Shown here piece after piece: positions 34,317 to 41,961 of a stretch of 64,000 nucleotides of DNA. How positions within the stretch are numbered: the stretch's first letter is position 1; every line of letters begins with the position of its first letter. The position numbers and the translations under genes were made by a program. The notes under the pieces were generated by a model, which was not told the origin of the DNA, did no database searches, and saw only the letters and a list, made by a program, of their open reading frames with translations. Origin of the DNA: a virus; the IMG/VR virus record IMGVR_UViG_3300029822_000004, positions 1 to 64,000 of that record. One strand, given 5' to 3'.

Positions 34317-35279
34317 ATGTCACTCTATACCGACTACCGCCCACAATCGTTCGATGATGTCTTTGGCCAAGATGAGGCCGTGAAGCTGATGAAGGCCATA
34401 CTTAAGCAGCCACACAAAGACCGCCCGAAGGTATTCTTGATGGAAGGCCCTGCCGGATGTGGAAAAACCACCATGGCCATGCTCTTTGCAAACGCCATAG
34501 GTTGTGATACGTCCATCGCAGGTCTGGACTTTCAGGTCCTGGACTCCAGCAAAGATCGGGGCATTGACAACATCAGGGCCATTGCGGATGTCATGGGTGC
34601 TCGTCCTATGGCAAAGGACTGTGATGGGCGAGTGTGGCTTTTTGATGAGGCGCATAGCCTGCTCAAAGCATCACAAGAAGCCATGCTCAAAATCTGCGAG
34701 GATGTGCCACCAAGTACATACATCTTTATTGCCACCACCGAACCGCAGGCGTTGGGGAAGGCTCTGAAAACACGATGCAAGACCATAGCCATCAAGCCCA
34801 TGACCCTCGCTGCGGCTTATCACACAATCCTTAATGTCGCTAATCGTGCTGGCATTGCCATTACTGAAGACGCCGCTAAGGCCATGGCGTCAAAGTGTGA
34901 TGGCTCTGCGCGGATTGCTATACAAATACTTGAGAACTACATGCTCAATGGCGGCGATGTTGAAAAGGCCATCAGCATGCAGATAGGTCAAGGGGCGAAG
35001 CTGGAGGCTGATACACGAACCCTGTGTTACCATATCGCAAGAGGTACTGTCAAGTGGGATACTATGGTCGTGCCTTTCTGTAAAAACTACACGGGTCAGG
35101 CTGAGATGGTGCGCCTCGCTGTACTTGGATATTTGAAAGCGTGCATGCTCGGAACGGAGGATGCTCCACGCCGCAAGCGCCTAATCGGCTTGATGGAGTG
35201 CTTCATGCAACCATACTTCGGCGGCGGTACAGATGCGTGCCTCGTATACAGCCTTGCTTGCGCATGCGACATCCAATAA
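34317..35279 (+). CDS. Clamp loader, DnaX (gamma/tau)-like AAA+ ATPase
   Basis: LYTDYRPQSFDDVFGQ, GPAGCGKTT, DEAH, ATTEP, TRC. Confidence 0.92.
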   Translation: MSLYTDYRPQSFDDVFGQDEAVKLMKAILKQPHKDRPKVFLMEGPAGCGKTTMAMLFANAIGCDTSIAGLDFQVLDSSKDRGIDNIRAIADVMGARPMAKDCDGRVWLFDEAHSLLKASQEAMLKICEDVPPSTYIFIATTEPQALGKALKTRCKTIAIKPMTLAAAYHTILNVANRAGIAITEDAAKAMASKCDGSARIAIQILENYMLNGGDVEKAISMQIGQGAKLEADTRTLCYHIARGTVKWDTMVVPFCKNYTGQAEMVRLAVLGYLKACMLGTEDAPRRKRLIGLMECFMQPYFGGGTDACLVYSLACACDIQ

Positions 35280-36080: not shown

Positions 36081-37247
36081 ATGTACAACATTGAAAAACT
36101 CCGAGCCAGACGCGCTGCACGCCTTGCCGATACCCGAAGTGCGGCAGAGGGCAATGATTTTGAGATACTTAACACCACCTTTCTGCCGCAGGGTGTGAAT
36201 CTGTGGTTCCCAGCCGAACAGTGCCAGGTGATGATGCGCGTGGTGCAGTTCGAGGTTACGCAGAAGAACAACATCGACAACAACGAGATTGGCGATTATG
36301 TGGCTGCCCGCTCGTATTACCTGCATCGCCTGCCTGGCCGGAAAAAGCCGTTCATCTGCCCATCCACCTATGGCAAGCCCTGTCCCGTGTGTGAGCGCTT
36401 CTATTCATTCAGCAAAGAAGAGCGCGGAAACTTCAAGGGGCCGGCCAACGCGTTCAAACCACGTCAGATGGTTGTATTCAACGCTCTGTGCAAGATTGCC
36501 AGCGAGGACGGCACTACCAAGACAGTGATGCGCGTTGTTCGTGGTGGCCATTTCAGTACCTACGGCAAGATTCTCGAGGCTGTAAAAAATACCGCCACGT
36601 TCAATCCCAAGCGCGCCGATGATATCTTCCAGTTTGAGGACTTGGAACTGGGCTACTGGCTGCAAGTTGGGTTTGCCAAGGCCGCATCTATCTCTGGCGC
36701 TGGTGGCACGCCCTTTATGCAGATCGTGGTATGCAATCCCATGTGGCAGGAGCAGCGTGTGGCCATCAGCGAAAAGGTATGGGCGAAAGTGACCGACCTT
36801 GATCGCCTTATCCCGCAAGCACCGTCCATTGCTGAAATCAATGAGATGCTTGGGGATGGTGTCAGCGACTTCTCAAAAGAGGTCGAGGATGGCGGTGATG
36901 ATCTCGGTGATGACTTCTCTGATAATGTGAAGGGCATTGCTCCTGCTGTCGTAGACCCTGCACCAGCACCCGCCCCAGCACCCGCCCCAGCACCCGCCCC
37001 GGCTCCAAAAGATGGTGACGACATTGCGGACGACGATGTACAGACAGTAACCGCCCCGCCAGAGGATGACTTTGGCGATATCGGTGCTGAGACTGTTCCT
37101 ACAGACGCCGTTCCCGTATCTGATTTCGAGCAGTCGGTACCAGCCGCACCAAAGTCCGCACCAAAGTCCGCACCGAAGCCCGTGGCACCTAAGCCAGCTC
37201 CGGCATCCACGCTTGGCGCTGATGACTTTGACTCATTCGATTTCTAG
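36081..37247 (+). CDS. Single-stranded DNA-binding protein (gp32-like)
   Basis: H..CP.TYGKPCPVCE; long acidic and PA-repeat tail ending DDFDSFDF. Confidence 0.8.
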   Translation: MYNIEKLRARRAARLADTRSAAEGNDFEILNTTFLPQGVNLWFPAEQCQVMMRVVQFEVTQKNNIDNNEIGDYVAARSYYLHRLPGRKKPFICPSTYGKPCPVCERFYSFSKEERGNFKGPANAFKPRQMVVFNALCKIASEDGTTKTVMRVVRGGHFSTYGKILEAVKNTATFNPKRADDIFQFEDLELGYWLQVGFAKAASISGAGGTPFMQIVVCNPMWQEQRVAISEKVWAKVTDLDRLIPQAPSIAEINEMLGDGVSDFSKEVEDGGDDLGDDFSDNVKGIAPAVVDPAPAPAPAPAPAPAPAPKDGDDIADDDVQTVTAPPEDDFGDIGAETVPTDAVPVSDFEQSVPAAPKSAPKSAPKPVAPKPAPASTLGADDFDSFDF

Positions 37248-37255
37248 TAACTGGT

Positions 37256-37285
37256 GGTGGCCGGTGTAGTGATATGCCGGCCACC
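37256..37285 (+). other. 13-bp hairpin with GNRA loop after ssb (terminator, processing or stabilising hairpin)
   Basis: GGTGGCCGGTGTA-GTGA-TATGCCGGCCACC; weak U-tract. Confidence 0.6.
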
Positions 37286-37292
37286 TGAATTT

Positions 37293-37542
37293 GATGTTAT
37301 AGAAAGGTGGGCTTAGAAGTAGCCATCCTATAATGAGCAGGAAGAACTACCATTGGCGCTAAAAGGTCACTACTATCTAGGACAGCATATAATCTCTAGA
37401 AAGAGGATAAGGGCTGTCTGCAAGGTGGCTATGACTGATGTGCTGATGGGAAAATAGGAGTAAGTGGAGTTAAAGACTTCCACCCAGGTTAGATAATACT
37501 ATGGGGTAGTTCCTCTTGGTGTAAAAACACATCTATAACATC
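37293..37542 (+). ncRNA. ~250-nt structured RNA mimicking 23S rRNA H43-H44 (L11-binding/GTPase-associated centre) with a ~180-nt insert
   Basis: 11-bp closing stem; AGGTGGGCTTAGAAGTAGCCATCCTATAATGA and GTGTAAAAACACA align to 23S 1057-1088 and 1091-1103 with compensatory changes. Confidence 0.8.
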
Positions 37543-37585
37543 TTTTATTCATGCAGGCATCAAACAGCATCATAAATCGCACACT

Positions 37586-37798
37586 ATGATCACACCGAGT
37601 AACGTACTGTTGAACTGGATTAACGAGTTGAGTGCAAGGCGTGATGCACTGATACTCGCAACAGAAAAGATCAGCGACAACGAAAAGCGTATGGAGTCAA
37701 TGGATGAGGCATATAACATAGGAGGGCAGATAGCCAGAGCAAAGGACATGCTCGCAGACATAAACAGAGAAATAACAAACCCTAGAGGCTATCGATAG
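37586..37798 (+). CDS. Hypothetical protein
   Basis: 70-aa ORF. Confidence 0.5.
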   Translation: MITPSNVLLNWINELSARRDALILATEKISDNEKRMESMDEAYNIGGQIARAKDMLADINREITNPRGYR

Positions 37799-37807
37799 GA
37801 GTAAACC

Positions 37808-38035: not shown

Positions 38036-38337
38036 GGATGCTCAACAAGCTAGCTGAAGCCAACAAGAAGCTGATAGAGATCACGGCAAGCCCCCTAGAC
38101 GCCAAGATGACGGTAGAGCAAGTGCAGGAAATTGCCGACTACAACATGGCCTACCGGTCGTTTTATAGAAAATCAGGACTCACCGAGAAGGCGTGGAGTA
38201 AAATCCTCGGCGTCCCTCAGTGCAAGCATCGGGAATATGAGACTTTCACAACGAAAGTACCTGCTCACACGCTAAATAGGGCTGGAAGAATCGACAGACT
38301 CATGAGATCAGTAAGACGAAGGATGAAAGACAAATGA
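38032..38337 (+). CDS. HTH-like protein
   Basis: RKSGLTEKAWSKILGV..YE. Confidence 0.55.
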   Translation: MRMLNKLAEANKKLIEITASPLDAKMTVEQVQEIADYNMAYRSFYRKSGLTEKAWSKILGVPQCKHREYETFTTKVPAHTLNRAGRIDRLMRSVRRRMKDK

Positions 38338-39227
38338 CACAAACATTATTTCCTGAAAACGTGGCACCGAACGCAACCAAGCTACTTGTAGACAGCAAAA
38401 ACGTGGCCTATCATGCTTATTCGTGGGCGCTCAAAGCCTACGACGGCGAAGATGTCCAAGCGGCGTACTTTGTCTGCTTCTGGGCCAAGATCAAGTTCGC
38501 CGCCCGCCGCTGTCGCACTACCCGCATTGCCTTTTGCTGGGACAGCGACAACTCCAAGCGAACGGCTCTCTATCCTGCGTACAAAGCACAGCGGAAGGTT
38601 GCCGATGACCCCGAACGCGCAGAGATGTTCAAGACTTTCGACCACACCCGCGATGTCGTATTGCCTGCTCTGGGATTCAAGAACAGCTACCTGCTGGACG
38701 GCTTTGAGGCCGATGACATTATTGCCAAATTGGTTGAACAGAACAAAGATAAACGCGTGCCACTGGTTATCTATTCCACCGACAGCGACTTGTATCAGCT
38801 TCTCGGCAACAACGTCTACATGATCAATGCGCGGATGGCAAGTGACTATGGACGCCTCAAGCCCTTCACTGCGGCATCCATGCGTGAAAAGTACGGTGTG
38901 ACTCCTGCTGATTGGCCTATGGTAAAGGCTATCGCCGGCTGCAACTCCGATAACATTCCTGGTGTTCGGGGCATTGGTGAAAAGATCGCCTCTGCGTATA
39001 TTCGTGGTGAGGCAAAGCCCATGGCCGTTGCAAGGATTGAAGCTAGCATGGACACAATCAAGGAAACGCTGCGGCTAGTCAAGTTGCCATTCGAGGGTAC
39101 GCCTGATCTTGAATTCGTGCCGGATGCCCTGAACTACGATGCGTTCATGCGGATGTCTGCCGAAATTGGCGCCATTAGCCTGAGTGATGATGGGTACTGG
39201 AAGCGTTTCTTCAATGGAGAGGTGTAA
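38334..39227 (+). CDS. 5'-3' exonuclease / flap endonuclease (RNase H-like)
   Basis: YPAYKAQR, GFEADD, DSDLYQL, SDNIPGVRGIGEK. Confidence 0.92.
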   Translation: MTQTLFPENVAPNATKLLVDSKNVAYHAYSWALKAYDGEDVQAAYFVCFWAKIKFAARRCRTTRIAFCWDSDNSKRTALYPAYKAQRKVADDPERAEMFKTFDHTRDVVLPALGFKNSYLLDGFEADDIIAKLVEQNKDKRVPLVIYSTDSDLYQLLGNNVYMINARMASDYGRLKPFTAASMREKYGVTPADWPMVKAIAGCNSDNIPGVRGIGEKIASAYIRGEAKPMAVARIEASMDTIKETLRLVKLPFEGTPDLEFVPDALNYDAFMRMSAEIGAISLSDDGYWKRFFNGEV

Positions 39228-39229
39228 CG

Positions 39230-39691
39230 ATGGCCGGCGTCTTTAGCATATTCATCCCATGCACACCAAAGGCCGTCCAGTCGGTGCGGTCTTTCGTGGC
39301 TGGCAAGAAAATTATGCACTACCAACCCAAGGACGTGGTTGACTGGAAGACGTACATCCAAGTAAGTATCCTCAACGCCCTTACACCCGCATGGACGCCA
39401 CTTGAATGCCCCGTGTCCGTTGATGTGGTCTATATATTCTCTCCACGGAAGAGCGAAAAAAAGACCATCCTTGCGGAAATTGCTGACGGCGCGTGGTACT
39501 ACAAGACGACAAGGCCCGACATGGACAATCTTGGCAAGGGCCTCTATGATGCATGTACTGGCGTGCTGTGGGCTGATGACTCGCAGATCGCAGAGAAACA
39601 CGAGGTGAAAGTCTACGGAAAGAAAGAAGGCATAATGATATGCGTAAACAAACTGCCAACGAGCATACAAAGCTCTACCAGTATCTCCTGA
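39230..39691 (+). CDS. rusA: RusA-like Holliday junction resolvase
   Basis: RPDMDNLGKGLYDA, WADDSQI. Confidence 0.9.
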   Translation: MAGVFSIFIPCTPKAVQSVRSFVAGKKIMHYQPKDVVDWKTYIQVSILNALTPAWTPLECPVSVDVVYIFSPRKSEKKTILAEIADGAWYYKTTRPDMDNLGKGLYDACTGVLWADDSQIAEKHEVKVYGKKEGIMICVNKLPTSIQSSTSIS

Positions 39692-39879
39692 AGAACCTGA
39701 TTGATCCTACTGCGGTAGCCAAGCTGCTTCGATGTTCGCGACAGACCATGCGTGTGTACACGTTGCAAGGCCCGCCGAGCTATCTGGTGGCATGCGCAAT
39801 AGCCTATGTACTTGGTTGCACGCCAGAGGACATCTACAGCAAAGAGGAAAGCAGAAAGGCCAGAAGGAATGCTCTCTAA
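39640..39879 (+). CDS. Small HTH protein
   Basis: VAKLLRCSRQTM..IAYVLGCTPEDIY. Confidence 0.55.
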   Translation: MRKQTANEHTKLYQYLLKNLIDPTAVAKLLRCSRQTMRVYTLQGPPSYLVACAIAYVLGCTPEDIYSKEESRKARRNAL

Positions 39880-41068
39880 AATTACATTGAAGAACATCCA
39901 AGCCCACGAGGATTTGACCTTGGAGTTTGGGCCGGGCCTCAATGTAATCCACGGCAGTACCGATAGTGGAAAGACTGCGGTACTGCGTGGTTTATTGTGG
40001 TCTGCACTGAATGATGGCAATGGCGACAAGTTGCTCAAAAACAACAACGGATCAAAAGAGTGCTCAGTTGAATTGACGCTTGATGGCCACACTGTACGAC
40101 GCTCATGGTCGAAGTCTGCCAACACGTATTCAATGGACGGTGTGAACTTCTCAGCCTTCAGGACATCGGTTCCTGCCGCAATCGCTGAAGTAGTGAACAT
40201 GGACGCAATCAATGTCCAAAGGCGGCGTGATGTGCCCTTTATGGTCTACTGGAAAGCCACCGAAAACGCCAACCAGTTCAGCCAGATGCTCGACATTGAT
40301 GAAATCGACCGTTCTATCAATGCTATCAACAAAGACGTGCGAGAAGGCCAGCAGGCGGTAAACACCATTGAGGACAATCTACTGCTATCCAAACAAAAAC
40401 TGGATGCCCTCGGGTGGGTTGATGGGGCCATGGAGGAGTTCAAGCATCTGGAAACGCTGAATGCCACCATAGACGACCACAAGGCAAAACTACAGGTTTA
40501 TACACGTTTATACGACGATTACCGTATAAATGCCAACGCCGCAGAGGCCATCCAAGATTCGATGGCGGCCCTTGAAGATGTCACCGCCATCATAGAAGCG
40601 TATAACAACGTTGTACAGCTATCAAAGGACAAACAATGGCTATCAAAGACGTGTGAAGTGTATACCGCAGAATACCGACGTTGTACTGCGCTTAAATCTG
40701 CCGAAGATGGTTACACTGAGCTTGTAACTCTGCTTTCCGATGTTACCAGAGCAAAGAATATAGCGGTAGAACGCGCGGAGCTCAACACGCTATACAAAGG
40801 CCATTTAGCCGCCGAGACCAACGTTACCAAGTATTCATATGGCAAGGACAGCTTGACGCAAATTATGGCTGTTTGTGTGCTCGCTGAGGGCCTTCCAGAG
40901 CTACGAAAGAGCGTCACTTCACTACAGGCGGCACACAGGCAGTACCAGACACAAAAACAACACTACATCAACGCAAAACAGCTACAAGAACGCACAAAGG
41001 CACAGTTCGATGCTGCAATGCCGGATGTGTGCCCATTGTGCGGCTCAGAAGGATGCAAACACCAATGA
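39869..41068 (+). CDS. SbcC/Rad50 N-terminal half (Walker A, coiled coil, Zn hook)
   Basis: LKNIQAH..GLNVIHGSTDSGKT; ends with CPLCG. Confidence 0.85.
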   Translation: MLSKITLKNIQAHEDLTLEFGPGLNVIHGSTDSGKTAVLRGLLWSALNDGNGDKLLKNNNGSKECSVELTLDGHTVRRSWSKSANTYSMDGVNFSAFRTSVPAAIAEVVNMDAINVQRRRDVPFMVYWKATENANQFSQMLDIDEIDRSINAINKDVREGQQAVNTIEDNLLLSKQKLDALGWVDGAMEEFKHLETLNATIDDHKAKLQVYTRLYDDYRINANAAEAIQDSMAALEDVTAIIEAYNNVVQLSKDKQWLSKTCEVYTAEYRRCTALKSAEDGYTELVTLLSDVTRAKNIAVERAELNTLYKGHLAAETNVTKYSYGKDSLTQIMAVCVLAEGLPELRKSVTSLQAAHRQYQTQKQHYINAKQLQERTKAQFDAAMPDVCPLCGSEGCKHQ

Positions 41069-41961
41069 AACTACTCTGCATAGCCGATGTCCACTTGAAG
41101 GAAAAGAAACCCGAATGCCGCCTTGCCGAAGAGGATTGGCTACAGGTCATTGAACAAAAGATGGCCTGCATTGGTGAAATCGCTTCGGATGCCAATGTAG
41201 ACGCCGTGGTAATAGCCGGTGATGTATTTGATGGCTGGCGTGGTGTATCATTCGAGTTCTTCAATCGCTGTGTGGTGTGGCTGAATTACATCAAAGCCAA
41301 CACCAAGGACAAGAAGATATACACCATCGCAGGAAACCATGATCTTCCTGAGCATCTCTATGAGCAGATTAGCAGGACGCCCTATCAAGCGATGTGTGTA
41401 TCTGGCGTATTCACAGACATCTATGCCGATGATACCTTGCCCTTTACCTGCATGGCCTACACCGATCAGAGAATTACAGCGTCAAAAGACATTCTGGTTG
41501 CACACAAGGGCCTCTATCTGGAAAACAAGATATTCCCAGGCGTAAATGAAAATGCGCAGGTGGGGAACTTTGTTAAGAACTGCATACCGCCCAACGTCCG
41601 ATTGGTCATAGCGGGCGACTTTCACAAACCGTTTACAACCACCATCGGAAGTACACTCGTTGTCAACTGCGGGAGCATCTTCAGACTCCGTGCAGACCAA
41701 TGCGAGTTCCAGCCTGTCGTACATATTGTCGATACCGATATGATGACAGTCGTTAGCAAAAAGCTACCATTGTCAAATCCAATCCGTAGGGACTACATCG
41801 ATGACCGCAATGACCGCAAAGAAGAGCTGAACGAAATCATTGGCAACATCGATGGCGACTTCGAGATTACACTGAACTACCGAGACAATTTCAAAAAGTT
41901 AACAGAGGCACTACCAAACCGATCCGTCATCAACTCCATCTTTGAAAGGACACTGCAATGA
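41065..41961 (+). CDS. SbcD/Mre11 metallophosphoesterase nuclease
   Basis: ADVH, AGDVFD, GNHD, AH, GDFH. Confidence 0.9.
   Translation: MKLLCIADVHLKEKKPECRLAEEDWLQVIEQKMACIGEIASDANVDAVVIAGDVFDGWRGVSFEFFNRCVVWLNYIKANTKDKKIYTIAGNHDLPEHLYEQISRTPYQAMCVSGVFTDIYADDTLPFTCMAYTDQRITASKDILVAHKGLYLENKIFPGVNENAQVGNFVKNCIPPNVRLVIAGDFHKPFTTTIGSTLVVNCGSIFRLRADQCEFQPVVHIVDTDMMTVVSKKLPLSNPIRRDYIDDRNDRKEELNEIIGNIDGDFEITLNYRDNFKKLTEALPNRSVINSIFERTLQ

Follow-up and report, generated by a model that had tools for sequence, protein, structure and literature searches.

Results

A stand-alone RNA gene behind a putative gp32-like gene

The window analyzed here is a whole stretch of 64,000 nt (positions 1 to 64,000 of IMG/VR record IMGVR_UViG_3300029822_000004) from an uncultured phage with a 74-kb genome. 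At 37293-37542 it carries a stand-alone non-coding RNA gene, a member of a large family of phage RNAs that mimic the GTPase-associated center (GAC) of 23S rRNA. The features of the locus are as follows.

36081..37247, plus strand: gene for a gp32-like single-strand DNA-binding protein (SSB) with an acidic tail, upstream of the RNA (from an Atlas score, a lead only)
37256..37285, plus strand: GNRA-capped hairpin, 13 bp, GUGA loop, between the SSB-like stop codon and the RNA (-25 kcal/mol, z = -5.72)
37293..37542, plus strand: the whole GAC-mimic RNA, 250 nt (match to covariance model R1, folding, no overlapping ORF)
37293..37303, plus strand: 5' strand of the closing helix, standing for the top of H42 (perfect 11-bp pairing with 37532-37542)
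37304..37336, plus strand: H43-like arm including the turn at 1082-1086 as well as G1087 and A1088 (E. coli 1056-1088; 26/32 identical to 1057-1088)
37337..37518, plus strand: inserted domain of 182 nt at the place of 1089/1090 (helices from alignment A2)
37519..37531, plus strand: H44-like hairpin (E. coli 1091-1103; 9/13 identical)
37532..37542, plus strand: closing helix, 3' strand, with a short U-rich stretch after it (37543-37549)

A preliminary description of this DNA had pointed to an intergenic RNA closed by a perfect 11-bp stem. The stem is present in the sequence, and no ORF of at least 40 aa overlaps 37293-37542 on either strand. The minimum free energy of the RNA is -87.2 kcal/mol (z = -4.76), and none of 200 shuffled sequences folded equally well. 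Among 12 relatives, the closing helix has compensatory changes at all nine aligned pairs, and in near relatives a T>G at 37295 is matched by A>C at 37540, and a T>C at 37297 by A>G at 37538.

The RNA begins 45 nt after the SSB-like stop codon, and it had been proposed to be expressed in an ssb transcript behind a GNRA hairpin. The hairpin is indeed present at 37256-37285, while the identity of the upstream gene as a gp32-like SSB is a lead only. Its protein has no Pfam or PHROG match; the nearest Atlas clusters carry PF08804 gp32 on 20-26% of their members (feature score 0.93), and one structural row reaches the bar for gp32. Neither the related-locus search nor tblastn in phages returned relatives of this protein, and no cultured phage relative was identified. 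A promoter and terminator scan called nothing on the plus strand adjoining the RNA, and the U-rich stretch at 37543-37549 was not called as a terminator. None of the downstream ORFs matched a family, and near relatives lack them. Since the RNA persists in these relatives, its stem carrying paired changes, while 37583-37805 is missing, it is not the leader of the next ORF.

A ribosomal-protein autoregulatory leader was considered and rejected, as there is no ribosomal-protein gene downstream and no uL11 or bL12 gene in the genome. The search of the phage genome for uL11, bL12, and RelA/SpoT domains found none, so that any partner of this kind would be a host protein; no link to MazG or RelA was seen in the genome either.

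Contigs from four RNA libraries were also inspected. In near relatives, three span the RNA (depths 2.6-18.9), although such contigs cannot show transcription, transcript ends, or level. Very deep RNA-library pieces matching 37304-37337 are real 23S rRNA of other organisms.

Elsewhere in the family, tRNA genes lie within 1.5 kb of the RNA at 44 of 60 loci; in the examples compared, they share the strand of the RNA. The cultured Pseudomonas phage UNO-G1W1, for instance, carries a family RNA of 194 nt between tRNA-Trp and tRNA-Arg, at about 70493-70686 of its record. The window RNA sits outside any tRNA array: the window holds no tRNA, and the only one in the genome (73696-73769, minus strand) is 36 kb away.

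The RNA carries the fold signature of the ribosomal GAC

As the reference for comparison we used E. coli 23S rRNA from the rrlH gene, with the GAC defined as E. coli 1051-1108. This segment comprises the top of H42, H43, and H44, which we take to be the site of uL11 and thiostrepton; U1060, A1088, the 1082:1086 pair, and the 1072 triple are presumably the fold elements recognized by uL11.

Against the retrieved rrlH sequence, the identity counts of the preliminary description proved exact (26/32 between 37305-37336 and 1057-1088; 9/13 between 37519-37531 and 1091-1103). The ten differing positions are 1058, 1061, 1072, 1080, 1082, 1086, 1092, 1097, 1099, and 1101. Seven of them are compensatory, as had been claimed: 1058:1080 changes from U-A to G-C, 1082:1086 from U-A to A-U, and 1072/1092/1099 from C/C-G to U/U-A. 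G1071, G1091-C1100, and G1087-C1102, which had been described as retained, are all present in the window RNA.

The alignment of relatives places the pairs of the H43-like arm at 37305-37307/37327-37329, 37310-37313/37321-37324, and 37330/37334, with A1067 at 37315 and the U at the equivalent of 1072 at 37320. In the H44-like hairpin, G37519-C37528 stands for 1091:1100, U37520-A37527 for 1092:1099, and A1095 falls at 37523; G37335-C37530 stands for 1087:1102. The RNA therefore has a closing helix together with the hairpins H43 and H44, in register with rRNA, and it carries the tertiary signature of the GAC, namely the 1072 triple with 1092:1099, U1060 at 37308, A1088 at 37336, 1082:1086, G1071, and G1087-C1102.

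With the E. coli GAC, the window RNA shares the three-way architecture, the H43 hairpin (17/18 identical over 1062-1079), the 1082:1086 turn, G1087-C1102, and the H44 register at 1091:1100 and 1092:1099. The 1072 triple is common to both as well and covaries alike, C/C-G to U/U-A; this triple of 1072 with 1092:1099 is a known covariation of rRNA. Unlike the E. coli GAC, it lies outside any rRNA gene, has its own closing helix and 182 nt inserted at 1089/1090, and carries A instead of U at 1101, as does the consensus of the phage family.

As a control for chance, both strands of the window were compared with E. coli 23S rRNA, and the H43-like segment was the sole ungapped 32-mer with at least 26 matches; the best on the minus strand had 23, and ten shuffled windows gave 22-24. 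A bacterial LSU (23S) rRNA gene was rejected as an explanation of the locus, since Rfam detects no LSU in the window and protein genes lie on either side.

Covariation across a large phage RNA family follows the rRNA fold

Covariance model R1 was built from 18 other phage RNAs, without the window RNA and without its insert subfamily. In the 64-kb window, R1 returned one match only at E up to 10, at 37296-37539 (67.6 bits, E 5.5e-16, model positions 1-166). It also finds the true GAC in E. coli 23S rRNA (1048-1111, 54.6 bits), and it matches 79 of 80 family loci, 12 of those 80 being seed sequences. Pattern scans of viral sequences yielded at least 118 and at least 120 loci, from phages with hosts of many phyla. 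Among the matches listed, no viral locus of either scan lies inside a 23S gene, which argues that this is not a decayed piece of rRNA.

Among the matches listed, 76 distinct relatives document the covariation. The triple 1072/1092/1099 is C/C-G in 61, U/U-A in 14, and mixed in one, so that 1092:1099 (C-G in 61, U-A in 15 of these relatives) covaries with 1072. The pair 1058:1080 is U-A in 29, G-C in 28, A-U in 14, C-G in four, and unpaired in one, and 1087:1102 is G-C in 66. Loci found with the H44-only pattern add compensatory changes at 1062:1076, 1063:1075, and 1064:1074. The preliminary description had argued for a three-dimensional fold under selection rather than decayed rRNA, and had proposed a search for phage homologs with covariation; the relatives that we found keep both halves and have covarying pairs, and the covariation including the 1072 triple, together with the zero listed viral loci in 23S genes, upholds that argument.

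In ribosomes, A1067 is near-universal and is needed for thiostrepton and EF-G contacts. Both loop adenines reported as kept are present in the window RNA (37315 for 1067 and 37523 for 1095), but the family, unlike the ribosomal GAC, is relaxed at 1067: in 109 members, among the matches listed, this position is A in 81, G in 24, C in three, and U in one. Contact with factors or thiopeptides therefore does not constrain the family as a whole.

The window insert (37337-37518) sits between 1088 and 1091, the insertion site of the family. Family inserts range from 47 to 352 nt and differ in sequence. A 66-nt form with no insert also exists (L012, 38.7 bits with R1), and thus the core alone is kept by selection. 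In at least 14 relatives, whose inserts measure ~350 nt, there is in addition a sarcin-ricin-loop (SRL) copy. It is an exact AGUAC-GNRA-GGA hairpin inside the insert, 242-277 nt after the start of H43, found at 14 or more loci against 0.32 expected.

When the 361-nt region was compared by BLASTN with 50,697 phage records, nothing matched; a query of the 41-nt core, with E allowed up to 10, hit five records. Separately, 13 further DNA runs contain 0.52-0.72 of the sampled words.

Conservation of the inserted 182-nt domain

Alignment A2 gives the helices of the insert as 37339-37343/37510-37514, 37347-37349/37455-37457, 37350-37359/37440-37449, 37365-37369/37432-37436, 37373-37377/37424-37428, a hairpin at 37464-37481, and 37482-37485/37504-37507, with a variable tip at 37378-37423. 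Pairing over the whole structure (59 pairs) reaches 96.3%, versus 80.7% for shuffled controls, and at 34 of the pairs both sides have changed. The inserted domain of 182 nt is conserved: inserts of the window type are strongly conserved, with invariant loops, and are common to loci L068/L244, L101/L253, L254, L255, L258, and L261-L263.

This structure revises several stems drawn from the single sequence, the corrections resting on 12 relatives. Of the long stem proposed at 37338-37350/37506-37518, only the basal part (37339-37343/37510-37514) stands, and 37347-37349 pairs instead with 37455-37457 (U-A in seven, C-G in five). The hairpin proposed at 37464-37468/37479-37483 is real in a different register (37464:37481 and 37466-37471:37475-37480), and the stem at 37380-37386/37413-37419 falls in the variable tip.

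A pseudoknot between 37374-37379 and 37490-37495 had also been suggested, and the 12 relatives do not support it as a feature of the family. Nine of them have the partner segment, with 88.9% pairing, and three lack it; the same paired percentage arose in 61 of 500 shuffles and the same covariation score in 44 of 500. The pseudoknot competes, moreover, with helix 37373-37377/37424-37428, which is 100% paired with two covarying pairs.

The GUGCGAAAUG...UGAUGUGC loop of the insert also occurs in an RNA from a Flintibacter muris prophage (L308). Judged by eye, the GUGCGAAAUG/UGAUGUGC loop is a clean fit to neither a k-turn nor an S-turn. A search of the window insert for other rRNA look-alikes returned a 9-mer match only, and the insert has no AGUAC-GNRA-GGA (SRL) hairpin.

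The family appears undescribed

The Rfam search that had been proposed as a check gave zero matches in the window at the gathering score, and hence no described family. Rfam 15 in E-value mode returned only noise in the window (best 16.4 bits) and no LSU match, and on 35 related loci Rfam found tRNA and tmRNA only. We found no phage GAC mimic described in the literature. A catalogue of 10,006 viral structured-RNA candidates names no rRNA mimic in the part available to us, and its sequence supplements may contain an unnamed entry (PMC10690425). Altogether, the phage GAC-mimic family appears to be undescribed, and the occurrence of GAC and SRL copies on one phage RNA is new here.

Discussion

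What might a free copy of the GAC do for a phage? We infer, with about even confidence, that the RNA may act in trans as an off-ribosome imitation of the uL11 stalk base. It would be made as a stable species acting away from the ribosome and would bind host uL11 (the window RNA keeps U1060, A1088, the 1082:1086 pair, and the 1072 triple). The RNA, or an RNA-uL11 particle, would compete with ribosomes for ligands that dock at the GAC, and the insert would supply a second binding surface. As for the pay-off, we regard two versions as rather doubtful to a similar degree: the RNA might draw off GAC-directed attack on translation by defense toxins, competitor toxins, or thiopeptides, or it might blunt uL11-dependent signaling or GTPase traffic (RelA, EF-G, IF2).

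There are precedents in vitro, in a bacterial toxin, and in phage genomes. "Ribosome-in-pieces" oligonucleotides are free copies of the same rRNA elements, and the free SRL oligonucleotide binds EF-G and IF2 in vitro (PMC3496166); a thiostrepton-domain oligonucleotide appears in the reference list of that paper (Munishkin & Wool 1997). These are laboratory constructs, whereas the phage RNAs are natural genes under selection. The bacterial toxin Tre23 acts on H44 (PMC8661411), and domains of the bL12 stalk protein are encoded by phages (PMC6375957). Against the imitation of the stalk base, neither the conserved insert nor the SRL copy of at least 14 relatives is accounted for by a uL11 sponge, position 1067 varies in the family, and competing with tens of thousands of ribosomes must require a high copy number; the window member, in addition, lies outside a tRNA array.

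An alternative that we consider unlikely is a strict decoy for toxins or antibiotics, in which the RNA would be a pseudo-substrate or bait for attackers of the GAC and, in some relatives, of the SRL, late translation being protected and uL11 incidental. Such attackers exist: the bacterial toxin Tre23 ADP-ribosylates H44 at 1095-1098 (PMC8661411), and a free SRL oligonucleotide is still recognized specifically by alpha-sarcin and ricin, going by the title of Endo 1988 as cited in PMC3496166. At least 14 relatives put both of these documented toxin-targeted rRNA elements on one RNA. The family is also co-located with tRNA arrays, and phage tRNAs are thought to offset tRNA-cleaving defenses. However, we know of no GAC-directed toxin of phage defense, a stoichiometric bait stops catalytic toxins poorly, the window RNA has no SRL copy, and hosts of many phyla would require an equally widespread attacker.

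The RNA-uL11 particle could instead engage translational GTPases or RelA, lowering (p)ppGpp synthesis or retuning elongation, which we think quite unlikely. uL11 is required for the activation of RelA, but RelA also requires the whole ribosome with an A-site tRNA, and no MazG or RelA link is seen in this genome. Among the matches listed, 28 of 109 members do not have A at 1067, and most members lack the SRL copy. In its favor, one subfamily unites GAC and SRL copies, which together form the factor-binding center (PMC2330231), and the binding of EF-G and IF2 by free SRL RNA (PMC3496166, as above) points the same way.

No less improbable is a scaffold, in which the GAC-like module would be a compact nuclease-resistant handle, perhaps stabilized by uL11, and the variable insert would do the work. 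That inserts span 47-352 nt with differing sequences is consistent with this, as is the strong conservation of the window-type insert with its invariant loops; the 66-nt insert-free form speaks against it, and the conservation of the core far exceeds the needs of a mere clamp.

We hold it very improbable that the RNA is a cis element of the gp32-like mRNA (a 3'UTR stabilizer, terminator, or regulator of neighboring genes). Its position, 45 nt past the SSB-like stop codon, behind a strong hairpin and before a short U run, would suit such an element, yet relatives stand in tRNA arrays with no gp32-like gene, the RNA is kept where near relatives lack the downstream ORF, and the scan called no terminator. 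Finally, chance resemblance or a decaying captured 23S piece has a negligible probability: although the 33-nt H43-like stretch is at least 90% identical to real 23S rRNA contigs from the same habitats, this explanation is contradicted by the 32-mer control, the reciprocal R1 matches in the window and in E. coli 23S rRNA, the covariation including the tertiary triple, the RNA's own closing helix, and the conserved insert.

The imitation of the stalk base has parallels among known RNAs. Ribosomal-protein leaders, such as the L10 leader (Rfam RF00557), which we take to imitate an rRNA binding site, are likewise RNA copies of the rRNA site of a protein and so bind a ribosomal protein off the ribosome. 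They are cis-acting parts of cellular ribosomal-protein operon mRNAs with a loose likeness to rRNA, whereas the phage family reproduces a whole folding domain with high fidelity and is found beside tRNAs or replication genes. RNA anti-CRISPRs (Racr) are encoded by phages and mimic CRISPR repeats. Should the decoy reading hold, both would be phage RNAs that resemble an RNA of the host and sequester the proteins it partners with. The RNA imitated and the target system differ.

GOLLD, ROOL, and the T4 stable RNAs C and D are also phage-borne, often beside tRNA genes as in the GAC-mimic family, and have no known function; to our knowledge, none of them copies an rRNA domain. No Rfam family is matched in the window, nor any in the 35 related loci beyond tRNA and tmRNA. 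Within the family, the window member has the same core and the same insertion site as the other phage GAC mimics and is, like them, absent from Rfam. It differs in lying behind a gp32-like gene with no tRNA array, and in its distinct conserved type of insert.

The natural covariation of the family, in the 1072 triple and in the compensatory changes of H43, is a ready mutational data set for a well-studied RNA tertiary fold. The relatives with both GAC and SRL copies point to the factor-binding center as the object imitated, and could serve as its minimal models. Members occur in cultured phages such as Pseudomonas phage UNO-G1W1, which makes the question of function directly testable. Should uL11 or other GAC ligands be bound by these RNAs away from the ribosome, viruses would have a new route to the translation machinery, the copying of an rRNA folding domain, in a large family whose hosts belong to many phyla.

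A broader version of the imitation of the stalk base is possible, if somewhat doubtful: phages of many phyla may rebuild the docking site of translation factors as a free RNA particle that traps or misdirects defense toxins, RelA, or translational GTPases. The particle would then hold the uL11 stalk base and, in some phages, also the sarcin-ricin loop, and the window insert would be a further docking module. This would be the first viral mimicry of an rRNA domain as counter-defense or translation control.

A phage RNA copies the GTPase-associated centre of 23S rRNA

The 250-nt RNA at 37293-37542 (+) is a stand-alone, selected copy of the fold of the GTPase-associated centre (GAC; top of H42, H43 and H44, E. 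coli 23S positions 1051-1108), its GAC-like ends being separated by a 182-nt insert (37337-37518). A scripted position-by-position comparison with the E. coli rrlH 23S gene returned the identities given in the preliminary description, 26/32 for 37305-37336 against 1057-1088 and 9/13 for 37519-37531 against 1091-1103. The ten differences fall at 1058, 1061, 1072, 1080, 1082, 1086, 1092, 1097, 1099 and 1101; seven are compensatory and make up the three sets that had been named (1058-1080, 1082-1086 and the triple 1072/1092/1099). In an exhaustive ungapped comparison of both strands of the window with the whole 23S, no 32-mer other than 37305-37336 reached 26 matches, and the best match in ten shuffled windows was at most 24. 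From the rrlH recount and this comparison, we conclude that the earlier numbers and coordinates are right and that the likeness is above chance.

No ORF of at least 40 aa overlaps 37293-37542 on either strand. The plus strand folds at -87.2 kcal/mol, against -63.75 ± 4.93 for shuffles (z = -4.76; 0/200 as good), and the minus strand folds more weakly (-69.1 kcal/mol, z = -4.22). The IMG/VR record comprises 74,240 bases and is complete by CheckV, the window being its first 64 kb, and the RNA sits in a replication and recombination module:

34317-35279, clamp loader
36081-37247, 388-aa ORF, candidate gp32-like single-strand-binding protein (SSB), stop codon 45 nt before the RNA start
37256-37285, 13-bp hairpin with a GUGA loop (-25 kcal/mol), between the SSB-like gene and the RNA
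38334-39227, 5'-3' exonuclease
39230-39691, RusA
39806-41961, SbcC/SbcD-like genes

The SSB assignment is a lead only: the 388-aa ORF matches nothing in Pfam or PHROG, a protein atlas groups it with single-strand-binding proteins of the gp32 type (feature score 0.93), PF08804 is found on 20-26% of cluster members there, and one structural row meets the bar. Pro-Ala and PKSA repeats occur in the linker of this gp32-like protein (window 36955-37005 and 37140-37170), and relatives show in-frame deletions of 24, 6 and 12 nt in that linker.

The RNA belongs to a widespread family with covarying GAC pairs

An 18-base pattern taken from the H43-like hairpin matched at least 118 loci in viral contigs, and none of the 118 matches listed lies in a 23S gene, their similarity to 23S never exceeding 300 nt. 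Their flanks share a common layout with the window RNA. Among the matches listed, 77 of 106 distinct contexts contain an H44-like hairpin and, after it, a closing helix of 4 bp or more, with inserts of 47 to 352 nt. Those 77 include the window itself and one false call; pair counts are based on the 76 good ones. Among these listed matches, the tertiary triple 1072/1092/1099 reads C/C-G 61 times and U/U-A 14 times and is mixed once, the pair 1058:1080 is U-A in 29, G-C in 28, A-U in 14, C-G in 4 and unpaired in 1, and 1087:1102 is G-C in 66. When the sole anchor for the loci was a closing helix of 7 bp or more, which made no demand on H44, the H44 consensus re-emerged in 135 of 168 distinct contexts, at ~65-70% per column.

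The converse search, with an H44-only pattern on one genome per prokaryote species, yielded 57 loci from many phyla (L268-L324), which are probably prophages or mis-binned phage contigs. An H43-like arm was found upstream, though it was not part of the pattern, with compensatory changes at 1062:1076, 1063:1075 and 1064:1074. Isolates with a match include Flintibacter muris DSM 110149, Citrobacter freundii M-21, Hymenobacter telluris BT186 and Olivibacter sp.; two archaeal MAG contigs were also matched.

We then used R1, a covariance model of the GAC pairs seeded with 18 aligned members, from which the window and every RNA with a window-type insert were excluded. At E up to 10, its single match in the 64-kb window was 37296-37539 (+), at full length (67.6 bits, E 5.5e-16). 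On the E. coli rrn locus, the only match was the GAC itself (L120:1307-1370, 23S 1048-1111; 54.6 bits). All but one of the 80 flanked viral loci, 12 seeds included, matched R1, and the exception (L041) looks unrelated. Of the 57 genome loci, 31 were matched at E ≤ 2e-9. A 66-nt insert-free form was also recovered (L012:1487-1552, 38.7 bits).

We found no family for a GAC-mimic RNA in Rfam 15 for the window or related loci, and a full-text literature search found no description of a phage GAC mimic. Outside its large supplements, a catalogue listing 10,006 candidate structured RNAs of viruses mentions no mimic of rRNA (PMC10690425). We cannot find in print this kind of element, a phage gene copying a whole rRNA folding domain.

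The insert is a conserved structured domain

The insert of the window RNA is conserved. Window-type relatives were gathered by pattern searches of viral and metagenome contigs, and twelve were aligned (alignment A2), with an RNAalifold consensus structure corrected to the GAC register. The 59 pairs of this structure are formed in 96.3% of cells, against 80.7% in shuffled and 39-47% in slid alignments; 34 pairs show changes on both sides, and 0/500 shuffles were as good on every measure. A2 supports the following elements:

37339-37343/37510-37514, helix
37347-37349/37455-37457, helix (U-A 7, C-G 5)
37350-37359/37440-37449, helix with conserved GCGC/GUGC
37365-37369/37432-37436, helix
37373-37377/37424-37428, helix
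37378-37423, variable tip
37464-37481, hairpin
37482-37485/37504-37507, helix

The helices 37350-37359/37440-37449 and 37365-37369/37432-37436 enclose an asymmetric internal loop, itself conserved, which recurs in a wider set of shorter RNAs (alignment A1), including L308 from Flintibacter muris DSM 110149. Of the stem proposed earlier at 37338-37350/37506-37518, the basal part (37339-37343/37510-37514) stands and the distal part gives way to 37347-37349/37455-37457. The hairpin placed at 37464-37483 is kept in another register, backed by three compensated pairs in the relative L244, and the pseudoknot 37374-37379/37490-37495 finds no support as a feature of the family, its partner being missing in 3/12 relatives and its pairing competing with a fully kept helix. 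At the four-way junction of the insert, two invariant strands, GAA (37344-37346) and GAGUAA (37458-37463), oppose each other. These strands recall the AGUA/GAA S-turn (loop E), a likeness of which we are unsure, L244 having A for the bulged G.

Some longer relatives also carry a copy of the sarcin-ricin loop

In the 238 collected loci (361 kb), we counted 14 exact occurrences of the sarcin-ricin loop (SRL) motif AGUAC-GNRA-GGA, on at most 12 distinct contigs, against a shuffle expectation of 0.32. All 14 matches lie on the RNA's own strand, 242-277 nt past the H43 start, within inserts of ~350 nt. The flanking helices vary with compensation (GCAU/AUGC, CCUCGC/GCGAGG, UUCCA/UGGAA, GUGCA/UGCAC, CCCGC/GCGGG), and 11 of the 12 SRL-bearing RNAs match E. 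coli 2653/2654-2665. They include L040:1125-1538 (-), L076:1119-1532 (-) and L123:489-911, of ~415-425 nt, together with L132, L139, L148, L151, L156, L158, L178, L222 and L238. Since GAC and SRL together form the ribosome's factor-binding centre (PMC2330231), an RNA with both copies imitates both halves of it. The window RNA lacks the SRL hairpin, and no further rRNA look-alikes were found in its insert.

Most members lie in phage tRNA arrays, and some occur in cultured phages

The family is associated with the tRNA arrays of phages. Of 60 loci, 44 have tRNA genes no more than 1.5 kb from the RNA, and in the examples compared these genes are co-oriented with it; one phage contig (L049) has two copies 80 nt apart in its array (1488-1724 and 1805-2070), and at two loci the mimic has a phage tmRNA gene no more than a few hundred bases away (L039:1840-2107, L076:705-1077). 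The window member's placement is atypical, since the sole tRNA of its phage is 36 kb away. Four named cultured phages bear unannotated members:

Pseudomonas phage UNO-G1W1 (PP551948.2), L264:1495-1688, 194 nt, between tRNA-Trp and tRNA-Arg, 88.5 bits
Pseudomonas phage Astolliot, L267:1825-2001, 86.3 bits
Xanthomonas phage XaC1, L266:1490-1725, 62.3 bits, G at 1095
Ralstonia phage RSP15, L265:~1486-1790, 41.4 bits, R1 aligning 1490-1568 and 1655-1789 only

In UNO-G1W1, an opposite-strand CDS annotated 'hypothetical protein' overlaps the RNA and is probably spurious.

RNA-library contigs span near relatives' copies of the RNA, though contigs alone cannot prove transcription. They carry paired closing-helix changes (37295 T>G with 37540 A>C; 37297 T>C with 37538 A>G), identical to those of metagenome loci L256 and L257. 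Such contigs of near relatives have one base in place of 37583-37805, a segment that covers a 70-aa ORF (37586-37798); the RNA is therefore kept where this downstream ORF is missing. The ORF is an indel adjoining the conserved RNA, and another RNA-library contig skips 37555-37756.

Discussion

To our knowledge, A1067 is essentially invariant in ribosomes, where it matters for thiostrepton and EF-G contacts and not for uL11 binding. An H43 pattern with the loop left unconstrained matched at least 120 loci, with no 23S genes among the 120 listed; among the 109 distinct matches listed, position 1067 is A in 81 (as in the window) and otherwise G (24), C (3) or U (1). From this relaxation, read against what is known of the ribosomal residue, we infer that the family is selected for the fold and the protein-binding face more than for factor contact.

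The RNA may act in trans, imitating the uL11 stalk base: it would bind uL11 and compete with ribosomes for GAC ligands. The uL11 bound would be the host's, because the window's phage encodes no uL11, bL12 or RelA/SpoT domain. Several points count against such a decoy: the family tolerates bases other than A at 1067, the reading accounts for neither the insert nor the SRL copies, and any decoy faces a difficulty of copy number. We consider the chances about even that the RNA is an off-ribosome uL11-stalk decoy. Free SRL RNA binds EF-G and IF2 (PMC3496166, where Munishkin & Wool 1997 is the reference for the SRL and the thiostrepton domain alike), Tre23 is a toxin that ADP-ribosylates positions 1095-1098 of H44 (PMC8661411), and phages encode bL12 domains (PMC6375957). 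With these precedents, both pay-offs of a decoy, diverting attacks on the GAC and damping uL11-dependent signalling or GTPase traffic, are conceivable.
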